Positions 8,853-51,510 of a stretch of DNA of 64,000 nt are shown here, in pieces (positions within the stretch are counted from its first letter, which is position 1; each line of letters opens with the position of its first letter). The DNA is taken from the NCBI GenBank assembly GCA_050015095.1, contig JBEKCC010000003.1, positions 27,388 through 91,387 of the forward strand, read 5' to 3'. Both the position numbers and the translations under genes were made by a program. The notes beneath the pieces were generated by a model. The model did not search any database, was not told the DNA's origin, and saw only the letters and a list, made by a program, of their open reading frames with translations. The stretch comes from Methanoregulaceae archaeon (GTDB lineage: Archaea > Halobacteriota > Methanomicrobia > Methanomicrobiales > Methanospirillaceae).

Positions 8853-9608
8853 TTACGCGAATACAAATTCCTCCAGTTTTCTTTGAGGATACTCATGGGA
8901 CATGATTGAGGACCCTATTAAAAAGGCGTCGCAGTATGGTTTCATCTCACGTATATCGTCAGCTGATCTCATCCCGCTCTCGGATACGATTATTCTCCCT
9001 GCTAACCAAATACTTCCTGAAAGATTACGGGTTGTGGACCGATCTATGGTGAGTGTTGCTAGGTTGCGGTTATTGATCCCGATGAGAGTGGCATCTGTTG
9101 CAAGTGCCAACTCCACGTCTGCCTGATTGTGAACTTCAACGAGAGGTTCAAGCCCGTAATCACCGGAACGATCGACAAAATCCGAAAGCCTATCCTTGAG
9201 AATCGCAGCAATAAGGAGAACCGCGTCCGCCCCAAGTGCTCGGGATTCTGCAATCTGCCGTTCATCAATGATAAAATCTTTTCTTAGAACGGGTATACTA
9301 ACCGCTTTTTTTACCTGTTTGATATCCTGTGCTGTACCACCAAAGAAATATGGTTCGGTCAAAATGGAGAGTGCAATACACCCTGCCCTGACAAGCACTC
9401 CTGCCATCATCGCCATATCTACATTGCGGCGAAGGATGCCATGGCTCGGTGAGATGCATTTGATCTCGGCAATCACCGCGTTTTTACCGTTTTTGTTGCG
9501 GATTGCATCTGCAAGACTTACATGAGGATACAGGATATCATCTGGAAATGAAGTAGGTAGACGTTCGACTCGCTTTTGGGTTCGCCGTATAATCTCGTCG
9601 AGAATCAC
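8853..9608 (-). CDS. trpC: indole-3-glycerol-phosphate synthase
   Basis: Contains [26 protein letters not shown] and LIGINNRNL. Confidence 0.9.
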
Positions 9609-10621
9609 AGTACACCACGTGTCTCTCTAATAAGATGGTCCAGAACTGTACTTGCTCTGCCAGAGTCAATTGATTCAGCTCCCATTGAAATCCCTTCTTT
9701 GAGTGTATCGGCTTTACCACCAAGATACACCGCAGCACCAGCATTCAAGAGCACGATATCGCGTGCTGGACCTTTCTTACCAGAAAAGATACTCTGAAGA
9801 ATCCGTGCATTTGTTGCAGCATCTCCACCTTTTAAATCGTTCAGTGTCGCTGGGCTGAATCCAACATCTTGACAATTGAGTACGTATGTCCTGATCTTTC
9901 CCGCTTCCAATTCGGAAATTTTTGTGGGACCTGTAGTTGAAATTTCATCGAGTCCACCACCATGCACAACCATTGCCCGTTCCACGCCAACAGAAGAAAG
10001 CACACAGGCGATTTTTTCAGTGAGAACCGGGGTATAGACACCTAGAAGCTGCGCTTTAGCACCGGCAGGGTTCGCGAGTGGTCCAAGTAAGTTAAAGACA
10101 GTTCTGATACCGAGTTCTTTTCGCGGTCCTGCAACATATTTCATGGCCGGGTGGTAGAGAGGAGCAAAGAGGAATGCAATATGATACTTTTCAAGAATTT
10201 GAGAGACCCGGTCAGGTGAAATTCCAAAATTCACACCAAGTGCCTCTAAAACATCAGCAGATCCACACCTGCTGCTCACGCTCCTATTTCCATGTTTAAC
10301 GACAGGAACTCCACATCCAGCTGCAACAAAAGCAGCGGCCGTACTAATATTGAAAGTTGATGCACTATCTCCCCCAGTTCCGCAGGTATCGACAAGTATT
10401 CCATTCACTGTGGGATTGATCGTAAGGGCACATTTCCGCATCACATTGGTAAAGGCTGCAATCTCTTCGACTGTTTCACCTTTCAACCGGAGAGCGGTAA
10501 GAAAGCTCCCCACTTGAGCATCTGTGGCCTCACCTTTCATGATCTCCATCATGGCCGATTTTGCTTCCATTTGGGTGAGGTTGCGTCCTTCAATGAGCTG
10601 TCCAATTGCTTCCCGTATCAT
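9605..10621 (-). CDS. trpD: anthranilate phosphoribosyltransferase
   Basis: Contains [41 protein letters not shown]. Confidence 0.95.
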
Positions 10622-30990: not shown

Positions 30991-31501
30991 TTATCCACGT
31001 TTATACCCAAACTTCCGGAGCAGTCCCGTTCGCCACGCAATCCCATCCGGACCCTCAACCCCTTTTGGTTTTAAACCATCTATCACGCCCATTATTCCCC
31101 GGCCCTGCGAAGATTCAGCAATCACAACTTCTGCGGGATTTGCCGTTGCGCAATAGATAGTGCAAACCTCTTGGATGTTTTTTATCGCGTTCAAAACATT
31201 AATCGGAAAACAATCCCGTAAGATTACGATGAATGAGTGCCCAGCACCAATTGCAAGGGCATTTTCCCGTGCTATCGCTTTTAGTTCTTCATCGTTGCCA
31301 TCTATTCGTACAAGACAGTCACCAGACGACTCACAAAAGGCAAGCCCGAACTTTGCGTTCGGGAACCGATCCCGCAACAGCCTCATAAATATCCTCCACG
31401 GTTTTGATGAAATGGGACTGCCCTAAGATGACGTTCACGTTCTCTGGCTTTTGAATTTTTACAACCTTGAACTCTACCAATTTATCCATCATTTTTGCCA
31501 T
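30991..31501 (-). pseudogene. adenosine-specific kinase family gene interrupted by a 1-nt frameshift near 31360
   Basis: The N-terminal part MAKMMDKLVEFKVVKIQKPENVNVILGQSHFIKTVEDIYEAVAGSVP is in one frame. The remainder, NAKFGLAFCESSGDCLVRIDGNDEEL...GRGIMGVIDG...GYKRG, is in another. The junction is ...gtt ccc g aac gca aag.... Confidence 0.65.
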
Positions 31502-31613
31502 ATCAGTGAAATGGATACGTCCGAAGATAAATGGGTTATTGTGCAACAGAGCTAATCCATCTAAAAAGCATATCACTCCAGCCAACGTAGAGATGAGATG
31601 GGACTGTGGTAGC

Positions 31614-32912
31614 ATGGTCGACACCTACGTAACCAGCGGTGAATCATTTATCCTCACTACCCACAGGATTAGTATCAACTTTATCTTTTACGATATGATG
31701 CTCACCACCCAGCGCCTCATTTTTATTAACAGTTTATATACCCAGTTCGAACCCAAGGTGATCTTACTTTCGAACATACAGTCAGTAAAGGGAGGGAAAA
31801 TTGCAACCGGTGAATCGGTTATAACAATCTCTTTCATCGATACGAGCAGCACCGGCGATTTGCAACCGATAAACCTCATTTTCACCCAGCAATCCGGTGA
31901 ACAAAGAAAGCAGGAACGTGATGAATGGCTAAAAATACTCATGGAACATGTCGTATCGGTACGCGAGCAGGCAATTCTCAGCGACATACTACCCGCTGAA
32001 AAGAGGTTAGAAACACGACCTTCAGGGGCAACTCAGCGCCCGATTGAAATGGCTATCCCCCACAAAACAATTAGTGAGAGCCCTCCAGAACCGGATAAAT
32101 TTGTTGTACTTCCTGATGAACCTGAATTACCGGTTATTTCTGAGGAGAAACTAGGATCTCGAGCCATAGAGCCTCTTGTAAAACCTGTTGTTGAAACGCC
32201 ACCGGATGCTCCTGAAAAAGATACAAAATTTCGGGATAAAAACACCGCCGTAACACCAGTAGTAGATGAGTCCCCCGTCGCTCTTGAACAAGAATCCCCG
32301 AATACAGTAACTATTCAAATACCGGAAATTGTAGGATCTGTAGAACCGTCTGCACCAGAGGCAGCGCCACAGGTCTCCGGGTCTCGTCCCCCACGTCGTG
32401 CACTCCGTTCTGGATTGCACACACTCGTTGCGGTCACTGCAATCATCATCGTTATTCTTGCAATAATTGGGGGGGTGTCGCTCTATTTGCATTACGTACC
32501 GGGAAAAAATGTAGAATCCCTTGCACCACCGGTCATCACCACACAACCCCTACCGTTGATACCCACACCTGCTCAAATTACAATTCCTAAAAATGGTGTT
32601 TGGGTACGAGTTGAGTATAACGGCACCTTTACCGGAAGGTACGGAAATCCCGGGTCGCTGTTGCCGGTAGGAGGTTCTGGTGATCAGTTTTATATGGTAC
32701 GGAATAGTGAAGGTTTGGTGCAGGCATCTTTCCAGAAGCAGGACAATTCAGGACAGACTCTCGCTGTTGGGATCTACAGAAACGGTGAGCTGATTTACCG
32801 TCGAACGATTAGAACCCCGATGGGTACCATTGAATTTCTTATTGATCCAAAAACGGGAAATCCACCCGGAATCCCATTCACATCACAAATGCGGGTAATT
32901 GAATATAATTAA
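31614..32912 (+). CDS. PH/GRAM-like head, Pro-rich linker, TM and conserved ectodomain protein (paralogue 2)
   Basis: The likely start is MVDTYVTSGESFILTTH at 31614. The head ends in TQQSGEQRKQERDEWLKILMEHV. The ectodomain reads NGVWVRVEYNGTFTGRYG..GSGDQFYM..FQKQDNSGQTLAVGIYRNG. Confidence 0.7.
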   Translation: MVDTYVTSGESFILTTHRISINFIFYDMMLTTQRLIFINSLYTQFEPKVILLSNIQSVKGGKIATGESVITISFIDTSSTGDLQPINLIFTQQSGEQRKQERDEWLKILMEHVVSVREQAILSDILPAEKRLETRPSGATQRPIEMAIPHKTISESPPEPDKFVVLPDEPELPVISEEKLGSRAIEPLVKPVVETPPDAPEKDTKFRDKNTAVTPVVDESPVALEQESPNTVTIQIPEIVGSVEPSAPEAAPQVSGSRPPRRALRSGLHTLVAVTAIIIVILAIIGGVSLYLHYVPGKNVESLAPPVITTQPLPLIPTPAQITIPKNGVWVRVEYNGTFTGRYGNPGSLLPVGGSGDQFYMVRNSEGLVQASFQKQDNSGQTLAVGIYRNGELIYRRTIRTPMGTIEFLIDPKTGNPPGIPFTSQMRVIEYN

Positions 32913-33827: not shown

Positions 33828-34499
33828 ATGAACACCCCGAATACACGTGCCGGAGTTCTATCAGTATTCTCTATAGCATTGTCTTCCTTGGGACGAGTTA
33901 GTAGCCCAGTTGATACAGCGATAATGACGTCCCCCCCTTTTAATAGCAGCGTTCACTCCGGCACAGGATCGGGTCATCATCCATCAATTGAAGCAGTTAT
34001 CAACTGCCTTGAACAAAAGGGAGTTAATGTCAGTCAAGTAAAAACAGCCCTTCAGAATGGCGATACCGTAGCAGTAAAAGCTTGGTTTGAGTCTTATCGT
34101 CAAGCACATCAAGGTGAGATTGTGGATTCTGCGAAGCAACAACAGAGACTTCAGACTTTCATCACACACCTTGAACAAAAGGGAGTCGATGTGAGTCAAT
34201 TGAAGACCGCACTCCAAAATAGTGATGCGGCAGCTATGAAAGCTTGGTTTGAAGCTTCCCGTCAGGAACATATGAAGAAGATAGTCAATCACCCCCAACA
34301 GTTAGATCCCCAGAAAATCATTACCCGACTTGAAGGGGAAGGCGTTGATGTGAGTCAAGTGAAAACTGCACTCCAATATGGAGATACTGCCACAGTAAAC
34401 GCTTGGCTCAAGTCTTACTTTGAATCTCACAAAGGTGAAACAGCTACTCATCGACCATGTGGGCACACTCAAGCAACAAAGATTAGCCAGCAATTATAA
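33828..34499 (+). CDS. secreted helical protein with three tandem 53-54-aa repeats
   Basis: GGAG lies upstream of the ATG and the N-terminus is signal-like. The repeats are LEQKGVNVSQVKTALQNGDTVAVKAWFESY, LEQKGVDVSQLKTALQNSDAAAMKAWFEAS and LEGEGVDVSQVKTALQYGDTATVNAWLKSY. Confidence 0.6.
   Translation: MNTPNTRAGVLSVFSIALSSLGRVSSPVDTAIMTSPPFNSSVHSGTGSGHHPSIEAVINCLEQKGVNVSQVKTALQNGDTVAVKAWFESYRQAHQGEIVDSAKQQQRLQTFITHLEQKGVDVSQLKTALQNSDAAAMKAWFEASRQEHMKKIVNHPQQLDPQKIITRLEGEGVDVSQVKTALQYGDTATVNAWLKSYFESHKGETATHRPCGHTQATKISQQL
34008..34490 (+). repeat. three in-frame tandem coding repeats (units begin at 34008, 34170 and 34329; periods 162 and 159 nt)
   Basis: The string cttgaacaaaagggagt[t/c]/cttgaaggggaaggcgt recurs at these positions. 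Confidence 0.7.
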
Positions 34500-37022: not shown

Positions 37023-38234
37023 TTACGCACGTGAACGATAAGGAATCAATTTATCCATGATCGTATATATGGCACCGGACTCTAATATAACGATCACTTG
37101 AAGACGATCCGTTCCTCTAGTGCCCTGCAACGTGATCTCAGACAGTTGTTGGTCGAAATTAAGTTTCCCTTGGGTAACCGTACCATCGGATCTTGTCAGG
37201 ATCACCTGGTTGTCCTTAACAAATCCTTGCCCTGGACCACCACCGAATTTAACATTGATTTCAGCAGTGATGGAATTCTTTTCAACCTCAAGGTAAAGCT
37301 CGTTTCCTTTTGGTAATACTTGGGTCGGGGCAGTCGTTAGCGTCGCAGTATTTATTCTTGTATTCTGGCTTCGATAATCTACAGTCATAGTATCTGAAGA
37401 ATTCGGAAAAAGTAATCCCCCACCTCGCTCGTTTTGTGAGCTAGTGGGACTCTGGGACGGTGAAGCAATCATCGGGATGATTAAATACAGTGCAATGAGC
37501 ACAACAATCAGCATGCCTGTACCAACAAGCACCCGCCTCTTTTGCGAGAAGATTGATCGTGGTGAAGGCTCCTTAGGTGGGACTGGCTTTGGTATTGAAA
37601 CTGGCTGAACCGTCTTTTGTACTACTGGAGAGGGCACCACTGGTGATGATTCAAGAGCTGATGTTGAAGATACAGGAGCACCGCATGCATCACAGAATTT
37701 TGCGTTTGGCGAAAACGGTGTCTTGCAGGCGGAGCAGACCGATGTTTCCCTGCTCTGTGCAAGAATATTCTCAATTGTTCCGGCAAGTTCATCAAAATGG
37801 TTTTCGAGAGGGGGTGTAACAGCATCAAGCCAATGACGGACACCGATGAGGTACTCCATTGACCGCGAGGGCTGGATATCTTCGATTCGGAATGGAACAA
37901 TATTACGTCCTTTGTTTACGGCATTCGTTAATTCCCTGATAACATGGGGAGAGTTATTCGCATGCGACGAAAATATCAAAACAACAATGCGACATTGTTC
38001 AATTGCTTTGACAATCGAATCCGGAAAATCGCTCCCAGGGGGTACATCTCGAGGAGCAATCCAGCACTTGATATTTCGGGATTCAAGTTTGGCGCATATC
38101 GCATCTGCAACCGGCTTGTCTTTCTGTGCATAGCTGATGAATACGTCATTGCGGGGGGGATTAGATCGATTCAATTCATCAGAGATCAACATACAAGACT
38201 CAATAGTGGTTTTAACGTACTCTACGATATTCAC
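37023..38234 (-). CDS. TIR domain, zinc ribbon, Pro-rich linker, TM and pilin-like ectodomain protein
   Basis: Residues 30-~125 are TIR_2-like: DVFISYAQKDKPVADAICAKLESRNIKCWIAPRDV...IVVLIFSSHANNSPHVIRELTNA, with candidate catalytic Glu101. The zinc ribbon is CSACKTPFSPNAKFCDACG (167-184). The TM helix spans 234-256. The ectodomain spans 257-403. Confidence 0.8.
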   Translation of the reverse strand: MNIVEYVKTTIESCMLISDELNRSNPPRNDVFISYAQKDKPVADAICAKLESRNIKCWIAPRDVPPGSDFPDSIVKAIEQCRIVVLIFSSHANNSPHVIRELTNAVNKGRNIVPFRIEDIQPSRSMEYLIGVRHWLDAVTPPLENHFDELAGTIENILAQSRETSVCSACKTPFSPNAKFCDACGAPVSSTSALESSPVVPSPVVQKTVQPVSIPKPVPPKEPSPRSIFSQKRRVLVGTGMLIVVLIALYLIIPMIASPSQSPTSSQNERGGGLLFPNSSDTMTVDYRSQNTRINTATLTTAPTQVLPKGNELYLEVEKNSITAEINVKFGGGPGQGFVKDNQVILTRSDGTVTQGKLNFDQQLSEITLQGTRGTDRLQVIVILESGAIYTIMDKLIPYRSRA

Positions 38235-38266
38235 TGTTTTGGTGATCTTTGGACGGATATTTGTTA

Positions 38267-39355
38267 CTACGATCCTAACCGTACAATTTTCAGGTTCACT
38301 TTTGCAAGGATACCAGGCAATGTACGTATGGTATTTCGATCTTTTTCTTTCTGTAGTTCAGAGAGTTGTTCCCATGGCACCAGACAATCATGTGTTTTTG
38401 TTGCATGGTTTACGTTAGACCCGTATTTCCAGCCTTTGGATACTCGTTCATTCATCCATCGTTCATGTTCGTATCGTGCAAGTACTTCAATTTCATCGTT
38501 TGAGAATTTAAAAGGGGGTTCATTTTTTTCGGAAGAAAACCCGATTGCGCATTGGATCAAGTGTAATTTTCTCCAGATACCATCGACCTGTTTGAGATTG
38601 GAGTCCTGTATGTTTCTGGGTAATTCGTTCCAGGGAAGCATCGAAGGATTTGTTTGAGGATTTATTCCCAACTTTTTCTGCTGTTCGAGATACTCTTCAT
38701 GAATTGCCCGTGCCACGAGCTCGTGTGTTCCCTTGAAACCAACATCGTAATACTTTTTGAGGACGTTTCTAACCTTTTCTGATTCGACCCACCCTTTATC
38801 GAGATTCGATATAAGATTGTCGATAAGTTTTGTTTGTTTAAGTATTTTTTCTTGATAGGACCCCTCTTCAAGAGTTACTAATCCTGTTATTATTTGAATG
38901 GGGTTGCGAATTTGATCATTTAAGATTTGAAACTGCTCCATATTTTTTTCAATTTGTTCATAGGCATCTCGTTTCAAGCGCTCCATTTCGACTTGTTCGG
39001 TGATATCCAACCCAAATACAATGGCTCGTTGTATGTCTCCTTTTGTCTGTTTGTATGGTATTATATCAAATTTCAGGGTTTTTTTACCAGAATTTTGGAT
39101 ATCAATAGTGCAAATTAATCCTGTTTTTATTTCACGGCTTGTTATAGTCGTATGAATATCTTGTAAAAATTCATCCTTTTCGTCAGGGAATAAACACACG
39201 ATGTTCTTTTCTCCGGTCTGAACGTTCGCTGATTTGAACAAATCCTCACACGCACGGTTTTCCCACACGATGGTTCCGTCGTCATTGACAAAAAAAAGGA
39301 GTGCTGGAAGCGTATTTAAGAGATTATTAAAATTTTCATCATTTTCTTCAATCAC
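38267..39355 (-). CDS. PAS domain, degenerate His-kinase DHp (no phospho-acceptor His) and two RyR-type repeats
   Basis: The PAS domain covers about aa 8-120. The H-box-like LNDQIRNPIQ lacks His. The RyR-like units are ELVARAIHEEY..LPWNELPRNIQDSNLKQVDGIWRKL and LARYEHERWMNERVSKGWKYG...HDCLVPWEQLSELQKEKDRNTIRTLPGIL. The gene ends 32 nt upstream of the TIR gene on the same strand. Confidence 0.75.
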   Translation of the reverse strand: MIEENDENFNNLLNTLPALLFFVNDDGTIVWENRACEDLFKSANVQTGEKNIVCLFPDEKDEFLQDIHTTITSREIKTGLICTIDIQNSGKKTLKFDIIPYKQTKGDIQRAIVFGLDITEQVEMERLKRDAYEQIEKNMEQFQILNDQIRNPIQIITGLVTLEEGSYQEKILKQTKLIDNLISNLDKGWVESEKVRNVLKKYYDVGFKGTHELVARAIHEEYLEQQKKLGINPQTNPSMLPWNELPRNIQDSNLKQVDGIWRKLHLIQCAIGFSSEKNEPPFKFSNDEIEVLARYEHERWMNERVSKGWKYGSNVNHATKTHDCLVPWEQLSELQKEKDRNTIRTLPGILAKVNLKIVRLGS

Positions 39356-39508
39356 ATTGATCCCTCAACTTTAGCAATTGATTGTTATACAGAAAACCCA
39401 CTATTTATGAAAATTTTATCTAAACAGCATTCGGTAACTCTGTATTTGTACTTATTGAATTACATAAGACCAAAAAGGATGCATTATGGGATTAATTTTG
39501 CAAAATTT

Positions 39509-40299: not shown

Positions 40300-41178
40300 T
40301 TATGATAATATAATATCAGTTGTTTCGATTTCGTGACTTGTGATATCTTTAGCAGTGACATTATAGGATCCTGGTGTCGTGATGCTCAATACATGGAGAG
40401 AATGAATCCAATTATTATCGGAATTCACTGAACTGGTTCCGTGATACCATACAAAATTTCCTTTCACTGAATTGATAGTTACTTCAATAGTTTTTCCGGC
40501 AGTGTCGGTACCAGAGACCGTTATTATATCTCCTACATGGAAAAGCCGGTCGCCAGAAACTGTCATAGTAACGGATCCTTTCTCTGCTTTCACAGTTGTC
40601 CGATCATAGGAGTTCTTAGTAATATCCATAACCGTTATCGTATAGGAACCGGGTTGAAGTGTATAATCCGTTGACCATTGGTAATTCCACGTTTCTAAGG
40701 AACAAATTCCAGAAGAAAGTAGGGTTCCACTCATGTTTTGATTGAGATTTGATATCAATTGGATTGTATCCCCGGTAATACATGTTCCTGAAAATGAGAT
40801 GGGATTACCGATGAAAATAGAATTCTTATTCGTCTGAATCGTAACGTTTCCATCGCGTTGAGGTGGTAACTTCGTACTTGTTGGGACAGGTTGAGTAGTG
40901 ACAATGGGTGTCGGAACTGGCGTTATTACCGATTTACTTTGAGAAGACGATGTTGGCATTCCAATAATAACTGCAGCAATTCCGGCTACGATAATAATGA
41001 CTACAATGCCAATAATGATTTTTAATGCCGGGGTCCACTTTTTGTCCATTCCAACAGGTTTGATCTTGAATGTCCCAACTTTTGCCAGATCCGCTCCACA
41101 ATGATTACAGAATTCGGCATCATCTGGATTTTCTTTACCACACGCGTTGCAGTACATAACAATTGAACGATTATCCAT
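40300..41178 (-). CDS. zinc ribbon, TM and two-repeat ectodomain surface protein
   Basis: The zinc ribbon is YCNACGKENPDDAEFCNHCG. The TM helix is IIIGIVVIIIVAGIAAVIIG. A Thr/Pro-rich linker follows, then beta-rich repeats (GDTIQLISN / GDIITVSGTDTAGKTIEV). Confidence 0.6.
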   Translation of the reverse strand: MDNRSIVMYCNACGKENPDDAEFCNHCGADLAKVGTFKIKPVGMDKKWTPALKIIIGIVVIIIVAGIAAVIIGMPTSSSQSKSVITPVPTPIVTTQPVPTSTKLPPQRDGNVTIQTNKNSIFIGNPISFSGTCITGDTIQLISNLNQNMSGTLLSSGICSLETWNYQWSTDYTLQPGSYTITVMDITKNSYDRTTVKAEKGSVTMTVSGDRLFHVGDIITVSGTDTAGKTIEVTINSVKGNFVWYHGTSSVNSDNNWIHSLHVLSITTPGSYNVTAKDITSHEIETTDIILS

Positions 41179-42753: not shown

Positions 42754-43758
42754 ATGGCATATCCTTTTCTTTCAAAAGATGAGCCCATTATTCTGACAGC
42801 GCAGGATGTTGTTGTAAGTGGCGTCAAGATGGAGGCGATCCTTACAAACAAACGGTTCGTTCTTCTTGAGAGTAGGGAGAATCAAATTCTTCATGAGGAT
42901 ATTCCGCTTGCGACTATAAGTTCTGTAATGACTAGAGAGAACTCCCTGCGAGAAGCGTCCCTAACCCTCTTTACAACCATTCCCAACGGTGAGACAAAGC
43001 CAGTAGAGATTGTATTTATCCAGCGACCCGGTGTTTTAAAAAAACAGGATCGCGACCGGTTGGTGACAAAACTCAAAGAATACTGCCCTTCATTAGAGAC
43101 AGAGGAAATCAATCCCAAACAACCGTTTTTGAGCCAAGGTTCGGGAACAGGTCCTGCCGCTCAATCCCCAGAACAAAAACTTACTCCTACAAGCTTATCA
43201 AAACCACCCAAGCCCCCGAGTCCTGTTGAAGCTTTTCTCGACCGGATACCTCTCATGGCGATTCCTGCTCTATTAGTCATTATCGTTGCAGTTGTTGGAG
43301 GAGCTTTTACTTATATTCAAATATTGCACGAAAAACCAATTGATCATTCTGGTCTTGCACCCATTCACACGAACACTATACAAACAATAGCGATTCCCGC
43401 TCCAACCACTCCCCCACTAATCCAACAAAATTTCACATCACAGGTTATCCCAAGAACTATGTCACCGCTTCAGCTCACTATTCCCACAACTGGTGTCTGG
43501 GTAGCAGTGAAATATGTGGGGAATTTTACGGGATCGGTTGGTGCAGGTGGGATCCTGCAAGCGATTAATGCCACAGGTGACCAAGTATATCGCGTTCCTG
43601 CACATCACGATATTGTTGACGTATCGATCATGAAGGAAGACGGTTCAGGTACGATGCTTGCTGTCGAGATCTATAATAACGGAGTGATGGTTACACGTCG
43701 CAATATGACGGCCCCTTGGGGTTTAATTGACATCCATTTAGATTTGAAGAAAATATAA
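42754..43758 (+). CDS. PH/GRAM-like head, Pro-rich linker, TM and conserved ectodomain protein (paralogue 3)
   Basis: The head is MAYPFLSKDEPIILTAQDVVVSGVKMEAILTNKRFVLLE...KKQDRDRLVTKLKEY. The ectodomain reads TGVWVAVKYVGNFTGSVG..ATGDQVYR..IMKEDGSGTMLAVEIYNNG. Confidence 0.7.
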   Translation: MAYPFLSKDEPIILTAQDVVVSGVKMEAILTNKRFVLLESRENQILHEDIPLATISSVMTRENSLREASLTLFTTIPNGETKPVEIVFIQRPGVLKKQDRDRLVTKLKEYCPSLETEEINPKQPFLSQGSGTGPAAQSPEQKLTPTSLSKPPKPPSPVEAFLDRIPLMAIPALLVIIVAVVGGAFTYIQILHEKPIDHSGLAPIHTNTIQTIAIPAPTTPPLIQQNFTSQVIPRTMSPLQLTIPTTGVWVAVKYVGNFTGSVGAGGILQAINATGDQVYRVPAHHDIVDVSIMKEDGSGTMLAVEIYNNGVMVTRRNMTAPWGLIDIHLDLKKI

Positions 43759-50001: not shown

Positions 50002-51510
50002 TTAATGGTCGGAAATTTCATGACAGACCATGAATATTACATCACGTTTTACTTGATGGATGATATGTGCATATATTTTAACTGGAATCTTCTTTTGAGA
50101 TTTGGTGTTAAATATTGTCTCAACTGAGAATTCAGCCCTTTTATCACAATTTTCTTTCATATTTGCAACAATGTTTTCCGTATCTGTAGCGAACATTGTA
50201 CCGAATAAACTCCGCAAGGGGAGGTTGAGTAAATCCTCTCGTGTGTAGCCCAATATTGTACAGGCTATATCATTAACTTCTATTATGGATTCTGGGTTGT
50301 CACCTTCAGGAAGAGAGAAGATAAAAATCATATCGATACTGTGCTTGAATAAAATTTTATATTGATCTTCACTTTGCATCATACATGTTTTTACTTCCGT
50401 CAAAGCCTTTTCCAGTTCATTTATCATCCAATTGATAGATCGACCCAAGTGCCCAATCTCGTCATCTCCACCTGGTGTCACTCTCATGGAAAAGTCACCA
50501 GCTACCGCCACACCACTTATCTCGCTACTCAAAAAAGCAATGCGAGAAAGTGTGGTGCTTTCTATCAATAAGAGAATTACAACACCATATGACAGGCAGG
50601 CAATAAACAGAATGGTAATAAAATAGTTTGTAGTCAATTTTCCTTGGTTGTAAATATCTCGTGGAACAATTATCCGCAGAATTAAAGCCGGGGAATTAAA
50701 AACATCGTTCACTCTTGCATAGGATGCAATTGATGTATCGTTTACAGGAATTATAAACTGAGGGGCGTTGTATTCAAAATTATCTTCGCTTACTGCTTTT
50801 AGAAAATACGGTTCCCCTTTTGGGATTTGATTTTTCGCATCAATAATGTCACTTGGATTATTGGGATCGTTGATTTCAAATTTTTCAACGGGTAGGTTTG
50901 TCAGTAAACTAAGGTGCTCTATTACTTGCCGGTCGAAATACCTGCCCATAAGAATGCTGCCAAGTACAGGTCCTTTATTTTCGTTTGCGTGAATCTGTCG
51001 CATCGTAATGAGCATTGGGCCATCAGAGAGAGATAAAATACCAGTTAAGCCATTGGTATCAGTACTTTCATACAATCTATTTTTCGGAGTGATGTATGTA
51101 AGCAGACTTTTTGGAAGTGGAATCTCTTGGTGAAGGTTAAGGTCATACATCTTTCCAGCGATAAGATTCCCTGAGGGATCAAAAAAAAGAATAGTGTTGA
51201 ACTGCATTCGTTCAAAATTACTGTTATCGAGTAATGCATTCGCTGTGGAATTATTTGGAGTGGGAAAAAAAGCGTGCACAGACTCCTTGTTCGTCCATTC
51301 ACTTGTCATTGTGTTCATAAGGAGCAAATCGTTGCTCAAAGCGGTTATGACTCGATTCATATTATTTTCTGCACCTTTCTTTTCAAGGTCATTAAACCCT
51401 CCAATAACAATGACCTCAGACACAACGATAAGAACGAGGAGTAACCCAATAAGTGTAACACCGACGATAATTGCAGTCTTCTTACGGATATCCATATTGA
51501 TCAATGCCAC
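50002..51510 (-). CDS. membrane sensor with TM, CHASE4-like ectodomain, TM, HAMP and PAS, but no output domain
   Basis: An N-terminal TM helix is followed by an ectodomain of about 260 aa (SEWTNKESVHAFF...GSILMGRYFD) and a second TM helix. The HAMP-like part is DDEIGHLGRSINWMINEL. A C-terminal PAS follows and the ORF ends straight after it. Confidence 0.6.
   Translation of the reverse strand: MALINMDIRKKTAIIVGVTLIGLLLVLIVVSEVIVIGGFNDLEKKGAENNMNRVITALSNDLLLMNTMTSEWTNKESVHAFFPTPNNSTANALLDNSNFERMQFNTILFFDPSGNLIAGKMYDLNLHQEIPLPKSLLTYITPKNRLYESTDTNGLTGILSLSDGPMLITMRQIHANENKGPVLGSILMGRYFDRQVIEHLSLLTNLPVEKFEINDPNNPSDIIDAKNQIPKGEPYFLKAVSEDNFEYNAPQFIIPVNDTSIASYARVNDVFNSPALILRIIVPRDIYNQGKLTTNYFITILFIACLSYGVVILLLIESTTLSRIAFLSSEISGVAVAGDFSMRVTPGGDDEIGHLGRSINWMINELEKALTEVKTCMMQSEDQYKILFKHSIDMIFIFSLPEGDNPESIIEVNDIACTILGYTREDLLNLPLRSLFGTMFATDTENIVANMKENCDKRAEFSVETIFNTKSQKKIPVKIYAHIIHQVKRDVIFMVCHEISDH

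Follow-up and report, generated by a model that had tools for sequence, protein, structure and literature searches.

Two adjacent minus-strand genes, here called A and B, were analysed within a stretch of 64,000 nucleotides (the window) of contig JBEKCC010000003.1 from a Methanoregulaceae archaeon. Gene A encodes a protein in which a PAS domain and a DHp-like helical hairpin are followed by a two-lobed ryanodine receptor (RyR) module, and gene B encodes a membrane protein with a TIR domain and a predicted extracellular beta-sandwich. We propose that the two proteins form a nucleotide-signalling module, in which B makes an NAD-derived nucleotide that is read by the second RyR lobe of A, and we give this reading a probability of about 0.5. 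As to its role, we lean towards chromosomally encoded, physiological signal transduction rather than abortive-infection defence. An initial annotation, made from the sequence alone, had noted that the two genes are co-directional with a gap of 32 nt, and their coordinates were confirmed from the open reading frames (ORFs; Table 1).

The pair was surveyed in one genome per GTDB species, with detection by exact peptide patterns. A full-length relative of A was found at 18 loci, all of them from Methanoregula, Methanoregulaceae or Methanomicrobiales metagenome-assembled genomes. At 16 of the 18 loci a B orthologue lies immediately downstream on the same strand, and the identities of A and B co-vary over 13 loci (Mantel r=0.84, 0/5000 permutations), showing that the adjacency seen in the window is conserved in other genomes. 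Twelve loci, from Methanoregula, have conserved flanking genes on both sides and thus represent one fixed chromosomal site; these flanks include TFB/TFIIB-like and ThiL-like ORFs, as read from the translations by eye. The pair of the window and those of L003 and L018 stand in other contexts, and the window's own flanks (an ABC ATPase, a bPH_2 protein and others) are not conserved around the pair in other loci. An extra soluble TIR-only paralogue lies between the A and B orthologues of four loci (L004 11149-11574, L006 11143-11874, also L005 and L008); that of L006 has 243 aa and matches TIR_2 with 81.6 bits.

Two RyR repeats had been assigned to A, of which the second is recognised by profile searches. 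PF02026 matched residues 289-357 with 60.3 bits (cutoff 27.4), and PDB profile searches matched A to RyR1-3 Repeat12 and Bacteroides RyR structures with E values down to 8e-28. The first repeat (lobe 1) gave no hidden Markov model (HMM) match in the Pfam and PDB profile searches, but it was recovered by Foldseek, which aligned the C-terminal module of A over 170-195 columns to human RyR3 Repeat12 and a Bt/human chimera (TMt 0.5-0.67), and by BLASTP, in which the phage protein gp68 aligned collinearly with A over both lobes (E=1e-11). Lobe 1 is degenerate. Since H219, Y222, N236 and N253 of lobe 1 stand in place of the H, W, H and D residues of lobe 2, lobe 1 probably does not form another full ligand site. 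Each lobe shows about 60% identity across the family; these and all other residue conservation values for A and B were computed on an alignment of 26 orthologues.

Two preprints from 2026 describe phage proteins with PF02026 that bind 2'/3'cADPR signals, isomers of cyclic ADP-ribose (cADPR), at nanomolar affinity or cleave them (PMC13232231; 10.64898/2026.06.04.730250). gp68 of Pectobacterium phage CB1 ('RyR Tad') sequesters 1''-3' gcADPR (Kd 43 nM), which it binds via H129/W132, K147/H154 and K170/D171 (10.64898/2026.06.04.730250). RyDEP (gp78) of mycobacteriophage DyoEdafos is a homodimeric glycosidase of 2'/3'cADPR, in which W78 stacks on the adenine, H100 touches the phosphates and H75/D117 form the catalytic dyad (PMC13232231). 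When gp68 was mapped onto A by BLASTP, five of the six validated binding residues were found to be retained (Table 1). In addition, H75/W78/H100/D117 of RyDEP fit the pocket residues of A by spacing. The earlier idea that a TIR product might be read by the RyR protein is supported by these preprints, and the retained pocket residues suggest that it may apply to A.

A shares with RyDEP and RyR Tad the Pfam family, the collinear alignment and the H/W/H/K/D residues. However, the phage genes belong to anti-defence hotspots, whereas A is a cellular gene at a fixed chromosomal locus with a TIR neighbour, and only A carries PAS and a DHp-like dimeriser in addition to RyR. The phage proteins subvert the signal of their host, while A presumably reads or regulates a signal of its own cell. 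Repeat12 of the animal RyR (RyR3) is the best structural match of A, being a two-lobed helical module with the same pocket residues, and animal cADPR signalling, with an NAD-derived cyclic nucleotide acting on an RyR-type module, offers a conceptual parallel. In contrast to the animal RyR, a Ca2+ channel of 5000 aa, A is a soluble protein of 362 aa with a degenerate lobe 1. Direct binding of cADPR by animal Repeat12 is unproven (PMC13232231).

The same pocket could also serve to remove or hold the signal. A would then be an off-switch, either a PAS-regulated RyR glycosidase or a buffer (sponge) for the nucleotide made by B, similar to the ring nucleases and phosphodiesterases of other second messengers, and the true receptors would be encoded elsewhere in the genome. 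We regard this as unlikely. The RyDEP dyad H75/D117 corresponds to the invariant H297/D339 of A, the order PAS, DHp, RyR fits the usual order of sensor, transmitter and output, and A has no other output domain; moreover, one bacterial locus encodes two different RyR proteins together with a NUDIX hydrolase that possibly processes ADP-ribose (ADPR). However, when eight other RyDEP homologues were assayed, six bound signals but none cleaved them despite the conserved residues, and conservation is therefore no predictor of catalysis (PMC13232231). The pure sponge gp68 shares this H/D pair (10.64898/2026.06.04.730250). The two studies show that the pocket residues do not tell a receptor from a hydrolase or buffer (PMC13232231; 10.64898/2026.06.04.730250). 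Output-like domains (TrkA_N, AAA, cyclase) are joined to the RyR module at most of the other TIR-RyR loci, which fits a sensor role.

In B, Pfam matched TIR_2 to residues 31-149 with 88.2 bits, and Foldseek aligned this domain with the TIR domains of BtpA, PdTIR, SARM1, RPS4 and AbTir. No other region of B is as conserved as the TIR domain (mean pairwise identity 78%). In the SPHVIRE motif of this domain H97 is invariant, as is E101 (26/26 orthologues). E101 was aligned to the Glu within 'SEWSKFEM' of a metazoan TIR-STING (chain 6wt6) and lies at what we take to be the position of the catalytic Glu of NADase TIRs. The two domain assignments at the core of the initial annotation, TIR_2 and RyR, are thus backed by HMM matches of 88.2 and 60.3 bits.

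The membrane helix of B was placed at residues 235-256 in the AlphaFold (AF2) model, in a linker/helix region of low conservation (~29-34%). Since Lys/Arg residues (QKRR) directly precede the helix, the N-terminus of B would be inside, consistent with a cytoplasmic TIR. The ectodomain is FN3/Ig-like: AF2 predicted strands at 314-397 with a pLDDT of ~90, and Foldseek matched FN3 and monobody structures (TMt 0.6-0.73). Its beta-sandwich (aa ~301-398) is 65% identical among orthologues and contains the motifs LTRSDGT and LQGTRGTDR; no relative of the ectodomain was found elsewhere in the 64-kb window. Like Toll-like receptors (TLRs), B crosses the membrane once and combines a sensing domain outside the cell with a TIR in the cytoplasm. 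However, the topology is opposite, B being of type II with an N-terminal TIR, and the ectodomain is FN3/Ig-like instead of made of leucine-rich repeats. Moreover, the TIR of B keeps the enzymatic Glu, and evidence for adaptor signalling by B is absent.

The TLR-like topology leads to an alternative without any nucleotide link, which we consider very unlikely. The TIR would serve as an adaptor between proteins, as it does in the TLR pathways of animals, or the RyR module would be a metabolic sensor of ATP/ADP, and the adjacency would reflect co-regulation or direct contact between the TIR and RyR proteins. In line with this, H97 takes the place of the TIR-STING Trp near the catalytic Glu, and crystal structures of RyR3 Repeat12 hold ATP, ADP or AMP-PCP (PDB 6uhh and 9l9b were among the Foldseek matches). 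On the other hand, the invariant Glu at the catalytic position and the 78% conservation of the TIR argue for an enzyme, and A retains residues that were shown by mutagenesis to bind gcADPR. Adjacency to RyR in combination with many unrelated accessory domains is also more easily explained by a diffusible ligand than by co-evolved contacts.

For the proposed module we envisage the following mechanism. B would be a receptor-type TIR enzyme whose extracellular beta-sandwich senses a conserved cell-surface cue, and sensing of the cue would drive TIR-TIR association on the cytoplasmic face. TIR NADase/cyclase activity requires oligomerisation. As suggested by its invariant Glu, the TIR of B would turn NAD+ into an ADPR-derived nucleotide, for example a cADPR isomer. 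A, dimerised via its DHp-like hairpin, would bind this nucleotide in RyR lobe 2, as the conservation of the pocket suggests, and speculatively might relay its state via the DHp-like/PAS part to partners. A nucleotide-binding module that occurs on many outputs and is coupled to a nucleotide-making enzyme is typical of second-messenger receptors (CARF, SAVED, SLOG, STING).

The pairing of TIR and RyR is found beyond the Methanoregulaceae. The RyR module of A matched TrkA_N-RyR and other proteins outside the orthologue set, and its family comprised 7,577 representative clusters at E<=1e-3. When the neighbourhoods of five of these proteins were inspected, a TIR_2 neighbour was present in three. 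In a metagenome scan seeded on the RyR module alone (with a narrower RyR alignment), the loci were searched with a local TIR HMM. A TIR was encoded in 22 of 80 RyR-seeded loci (617 kb) compared to 0 of 62 controls (932 kb; Fisher p=8e-7). The rate was 14/37 for ORFs of TrkA_N-RyR size, and 6/16 given at least 3 kb of flank on both sides. The TIR and RyR genes were mostly adjacent and co-directional, in either order, with gaps mostly of -57 to 150 nt, and most of the TIRs belong to the subfamily of B (155-183 bits). Pfam matched TIR_2 above the cutoff in nine of ten sampled TIR partners; for the tenth (L150) the table was filled by WD40 families.

The accessory domains of the TIR partners were Peripla_BP_4, SBP_bac_5, beta-helix/NosD, WD40 and AAA_16 with TPR, as well as a 3-keto-disaccharide-hydrolase-like domain just below the cutoff. 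Many are TIR proteins with a transmembrane (TM) helix and a sensor domain, some with periplasmic-binding-protein domains, and this agrees with the earlier remark that a membrane and ectodomain tether would be unusual for an abortive-infection TIR. The RyR modules are fused to TrkA_N, AAA/nSTAND-like NTPases, Guanylate_cyc or PAS-DHp. TIR-RyR adjacency therefore recurs in unrelated bacteria and in different architectures, as had been asked of the pair at the outset.

Tentatively, these loci could belong to a widespread prokaryotic transmembrane second-messenger pathway, in which receptor-type TIRs make an ADPR-derived nucleotide for RyR modules; we see this as possible, though somewhat doubtful. 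With the same reserve, extracellular cues might be converted into the nucleotide by FN3-like, periplasmic-binding-protein and beta-helix ectodomains, and the outputs might be PAS-DHp in Methanoregulaceae, TrkA_N/RCK membrane proteins beside K+ transporters, AAA/STAND NTPases and nucleotide cyclases. If true, the pathway would be a case of non-immune TIR signalling and a prokaryotic antecedent of the ion signalling from cADPR to the ryanodine receptor in animals.

Several of the bacterial loci deserve description. Two Dehalococcoidia-type loci (L095 and L099) encode a protein of ~925-930 aa with TIR, TM helix, Flg_new_2 and SBP_bac_5, and this TIR is of the B subfamily (CWIAPRD...SPQVIRE...PSKSMDFY...WLDAYTPPLEKH). 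The cluster at L095 1837-10545 (also L096, L099 and L107) consists of a TIR gene followed by genes for AAA-RyR (880 aa) and TrkA_N-RyR (565-589 aa), and L095 and L096 add a NUDIX hydrolase that could process ADPR. L100 187-8523 (also L101) encodes TIR-WD40 (932 aa), TIR_2 (516 aa) and TrkA_N-RyR (590 aa) proteins and a Kup K+ transporter. Here the end of the TIR_2 gene and the start of the TrkA_N-RyR gene overlap by a single base, and KdpD, KdpC and KdpB are encoded nearby on the opposite strand. This single instance hints that a TIR-made nucleotide might regulate K+ transport through an RCK-RyR protein.

In the TrkA_N-RyR proteins (L095 8001-9770; L100 4621-6393) two N-terminal hydrophobic helices flank a pore-helix-like stretch (SFGDILYRTLQLFALESG). 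This stretch has no TVGYG filter and Pfam called no ion-channel domain; that the N-terminus is channel-like is only our own reading. At L141 1-4825 three TIR-TM genes in a row come after the end of an RyR gene. Their C-terminal regions differ, one being WD40, and they form an array in which alternative TIR receptors would feed a single RyR protein. L149 7787-10465 encodes an 893-aa protein with a Guanylate_cyc domain and a C-terminal RyR module, where cross-talk between two nucleotide messengers is possible.

The pair could instead be an anti-virus system of a new Thoeris-like type, which we think rather unlikely. The ectodomain of B would sense virus attachment or envelope damage and elicit a TIR signal or NAD+ depletion, and A would be a signal-binding effector or regulator that halts growth. 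A TIR with a signal-binding partner follows the logic of Thoeris (10.64898/2025.12.03.692087), and phages use RyR-domain proteins to neutralise TIR signals (PMC13232231). Relatives of the RyR module occur in 179-250 phage records, the distribution among Methanoregulaceae genomes is patchy, and L004/L006 and L141 show duplication or arrays of TIR genes. Moreover, the RyR loci include TIR-WD40 and TIR-AAA_16-TPR partners and RyR partners with nSTAND-like NTPases, architectures that are typical of conflict systems.

However, A was not matched by PADLOC, and B drew only weak matches to generic TIR models, with ThsB at most 24 bits. Curated Thoeris models were far below their cutoffs on B (NCBIfam ThcB4 25.3 vs 220; Pfam ThsB_TIR 16.5 vs 21.2 bits), and so were the NCBIfam retron TIR models. 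With nothing above family cutoffs in PADLOC and NCBIfam, assignment to a known defence system was rejected, in agreement with the initial annotation, which had recognised no named system. We also rejected type X Thoeris (TIR with an 'ion channel'): its TIRs are ThsB-like and unrelated to B, and the accessible part of its description does not mention RyR/PF02026. Thoeris systems (types I-XI, with a ThsB TIR and a signal-activated effector) share with the pair the two-gene operon, a TIR beside an ADPR-nucleotide-binding-type domain and the Glu at the catalytic position. They differ in their partner domains, which are SLOG, Macro, DUF2270, DUF6650, SLATT and others instead of RyR/PF02026, and in their location in defence islands or mobile elements, whereas A and B lie outside a defence island. 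Unlike in Thoeris, B is a membrane receptor with an ectodomain, outside the ThsB family by curated models, and no known toxic domain was found in A. In the accessible text and tables of a systematic survey of 29 putative Thoeris types, neither an RyR pair, RyR or PF02026 nor the B-type TIR motif is mentioned (10.64898/2025.12.03.692087).

The genomic context also speaks against defence. The genes around the pair are of a housekeeping kind, both in the window and at the 12 syntenic sites. The window encodes a PKD surface protein, an aldehyde dehydrogenase, a P-type ATPase, an MFS transporter, a CHASE4-HAMP-PAS sensor, RuBisCO, an ABC ATPase and several membrane proteins. TIR, RyR and DHp-like modules each occur in it just once, it has no tRNA, and no integrase, defence or mobile-element genes were recognised among its annotated ORFs (Pfam, PADLOC). 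The pair thus lies outside any defence island, a location that the initial annotation had raised; its context is chromosomal, with ordinary neighbours in the window and a fixed syntenic site in the 12 loci. A prophage or mobile-element origin was ruled out as well: the A family has no relatives on viral contigs, B matches viral contigs through the TIR domain alone (39% identical), and the window has no tRNA and no integrase among the ORFs scanned against Pfam.

We therefore lean towards the physiological role, because the TIR forms the cytoplasmic end of a receptor whose ectodomain, at 65% conservation, is not diversifying, and neither is the strongly conserved TIR. Further reasons are the solute-binding-protein ectodomains of the bacterial counterparts, which suggest small-molecule sensing, the fixed housekeeping locus of the archaeal pair, and the lack of a known toxic effector domain, as Pfam, PADLOC and NCBIfam found only PAS and DHp-like parts besides RyR in A.

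Several points weigh against the proposed nucleotide module. For about 60-70% of the related RyR genes no TIR was detected nearby, and two of the 18 archaeal loci (L013 and L014) encode A without a nearby TIR. When five closed or near-closed Methanoregulaceae chromosomes were compared, four were matched by the DHp paralogue only and OY970361.1 by both A and the paralogue, which suggests that the pair is patchily distributed, as is typical of defence genes. The position of gp68 K147 is occupied by V315 in A and by Arg in 17 of 26 orthologues. The ligand of A need not be a TIR product, since RyR Repeat12 binds ATP/ADP. The residue four before the catalytic Glu, usually Trp in NADase TIRs, is His in B (Gln in L095), compared to Trp in TIR-STING. 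That the TIR of B and its subfamily are enzymes is a prediction. The receptor role of A is suggested by its architecture, in which no output or effector domain is recognisable.

To our knowledge, prokaryotic TIR-made nucleotides have so far been known only as anti-phage alarm signals, and RyR domains only in the animal Ca2+ channel and, since mid-2026, in phage tools that neutralise signals. In full-text literature searches no earlier account was found of TIR-RyR operons in cells, of TIR receptors in archaea or of pairs of TrkA_N-RyR and TIR. Archaea, PAS fusions and cellular TIR-adjacent RyR genes are unmentioned in both phage RyR preprints (PMC13232231; 10.64898/2026.06.04.730250). The pair would be a variant of TIR nucleotide signalling, with a realistic chance that this chemistry is put here to a non-immune use that is categorically new. 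A cellular TIR-RyR operon would give the cellular RyR family, with its thousands of clusters, a testable ligand and partner, and it would show the TIR domain as the output of transmembrane receptors in Archaea and Bacteria. The debated link between cADPR-type molecules and RyR Repeat12 would become tractable in small soluble proteins, and cellular RyR proteins would explain a possible source of the phage RyR-domain sponges.

Table 1. Features of genes A and B in the window, and residues of A equivalent to the gp68 binding residues (conservation among 26 orthologues).
Feature	Position	Strand	Description	Basis
Gene A	38267-39355	-	362-aa cytoplasmic PAS / DHp-like / two-lobed RyR protein	ORF list
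A upstream region	39356-39440	-	candidate promoter and ribosome-binding site of bicistron	read from sequence
PAS domain (A)	38990-39334	-	aa 8-122	Pfam, Foldseek
DHp-like helical hairpin (A)	38738-39001	-	aa 119-206, C-terminal motif GWxESEKV..KKYYDxG	alignment, AF2
RyR lobe 1 (A)	38501-38737	-	aa 207-285, degenerate	Foldseek, BLASTP to gp68 residues 75-116
RyR lobe 2 (A)	38270-38500	-	aa 286-362, complete pocket H297/W300/H322/K338/D339	Pfam, PDB profiles, gp68 mapping
A-B spacer	38235-38266	-	32 nt; 74 nt with B start at ATG 38192	
Gene B	37023-38234	-	403-aa (or 389-aa) type-II membrane protein: predicted cytoplasmic TIR, extracellular beta-sandwich	ORF list
TIR domain (B)	37755-38153	-	aa 28-160, SPHVIRE motif	Pfam, Foldseek
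Zinc ribbon (B)	37671-37742	-	aa ~165-188, CxxC-x10-CxxC	sub-threshold DZR, Zn_ribbon
Pro-rich linker and TM helix (B)	37464-37670	-	linker aa 189-232, TM aa ~233-257	AF2
Extracellular region (B)	37026-37463	-	aa 258-403, low-complexity juxtamembrane stretch, then beta-sandwich	AF2, Foldseek
gp68 H129			A H297, conserved 26/26	
gp68 W132			A W300, conserved 26/26	
gp68 K147			A V315, Arg in 17/26	
gp68 H154			A H322, conserved 26/26	
gp68 K170			A K338, conserved 24/26	
gp68 D171			A D339, conserved 26/26	

A is 100% identical to the database entry 'RyR domain-containing protein [Methanoregulaceae archaeon]', and a protein database search returned ~85 full-length orthologue clusters for A and ~118 for B. 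Because the orthologues of B begin at the position equivalent to Met15 of the window protein, the true start of B is probably the ATG at 38192; E101 would then be renumbered E87, and the gap to A may be 74 nt instead of 32 nt. A TATA-like sequence (cATAAATAg) ~45-50 nt 5' of the start codon of A and a Shine-Dalgarno-like GAGGGA 6 nt 5' of its GTG were read directly from the sequence, and they are candidates for a promoter and ribosome-binding site serving both genes.

The AlphaFold model of A (pLDDT 76.5) consists of the PAS domain, a two-helix DHp-like hairpin (119-191, with helices at 119-160 and 166-191) and the helical C-terminal module. The PAS domain assigned earlier was recovered by Pfam (PAS_4 on residues 13-122, 31.5 bits; PAS and PAS_10 likewise over their cutoffs), and Foldseek matched it to the PAS domain of Rv1364c and to LOV domains. 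A LOV/flavin type was ruled out, as the family has the consensus NRAF around the would-be LOV motif and lacks a conserved Cys there. PAS is the fastest-evolving part of A (mean pairwise identity 32%), and the DHp-like module is the best-conserved region (69%). An H-box lacking His had been described, which holds for the window protein (LNDQIRNP, residue 148 being Q) but not for most of the family: there the H-box reads LGD[H/Q/N]LRNP, with His in 19 of 26 orthologues and Q or N in the others. D147, R150, N151 and P152 are invariant.

A has in common with two-component sensor histidine kinases the succession of PAS and a DHp-like hairpin, and Foldseek matches included LOV-histidine-kinase chimeras. 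Unlike in these kinases, HisKA was below threshold (15.7 vs 26.9 bits), the phospho-acceptor His is not conserved, and no HATPase_c was found in A, its listed orthologues or the L023 paralogue (Pfam, protein listings). A is therefore not a histidine kinase.

Paralogue loci (L019-L080) matched A only across aa 116-206; the L023 protein (8978-10318), for instance, has two PAS domains and a HisKA-like part but no HATPase_c. More than 60 Methanoregula/Methanomicrobiales genomes encode such a kinase-less membrane-PAS-PAS protein, with the DHp-like module of A at the C-terminus (50-60% identity to aa 116-206), forming a 'HisKA-only' sensor family. It is speculation that A heterodimerises with these membrane-PAS-PAS-DHp paralogues.

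The zinc ribbon noted earlier in B, separated from the TIR fold by a helix in the AF2 model, stood in part. The CxxC-x10-CxxC pattern is present, but all Pfam ribbon models were sub-threshold and only 15 of 26 orthologues have it, so that the ribbon is dispensable. TIR domains 39% identical to that of B, with the CWIAPRD-type motif, are encoded on 14 IMG/VR viral contigs (L081-L094).

Elsewhere in the window, the CHASE4-HAMP-PAS sensor (50002-51510, minus) ends just after PAS with no output domain, and a 223-aa protein (33828-34499, plus) contains three ~55-aa repeats (…EQKGV(D/N)VSQ(V/L)KTALQNGD…AWFES…) with no convincing Pfam family. Three proteins (31467-32912, plus; 42754-43758, plus; 40300-41178, minus) have a layout like that of B, in which a small domain in the cytoplasm is connected by a Pro-rich linker and one TM helix to a beta-rich domain outside the cell. 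A C-terminal domain is common to the first two, and in the syntenic Methanoregula loci a relative of this domain is encoded ~6 kb upstream of the pair.

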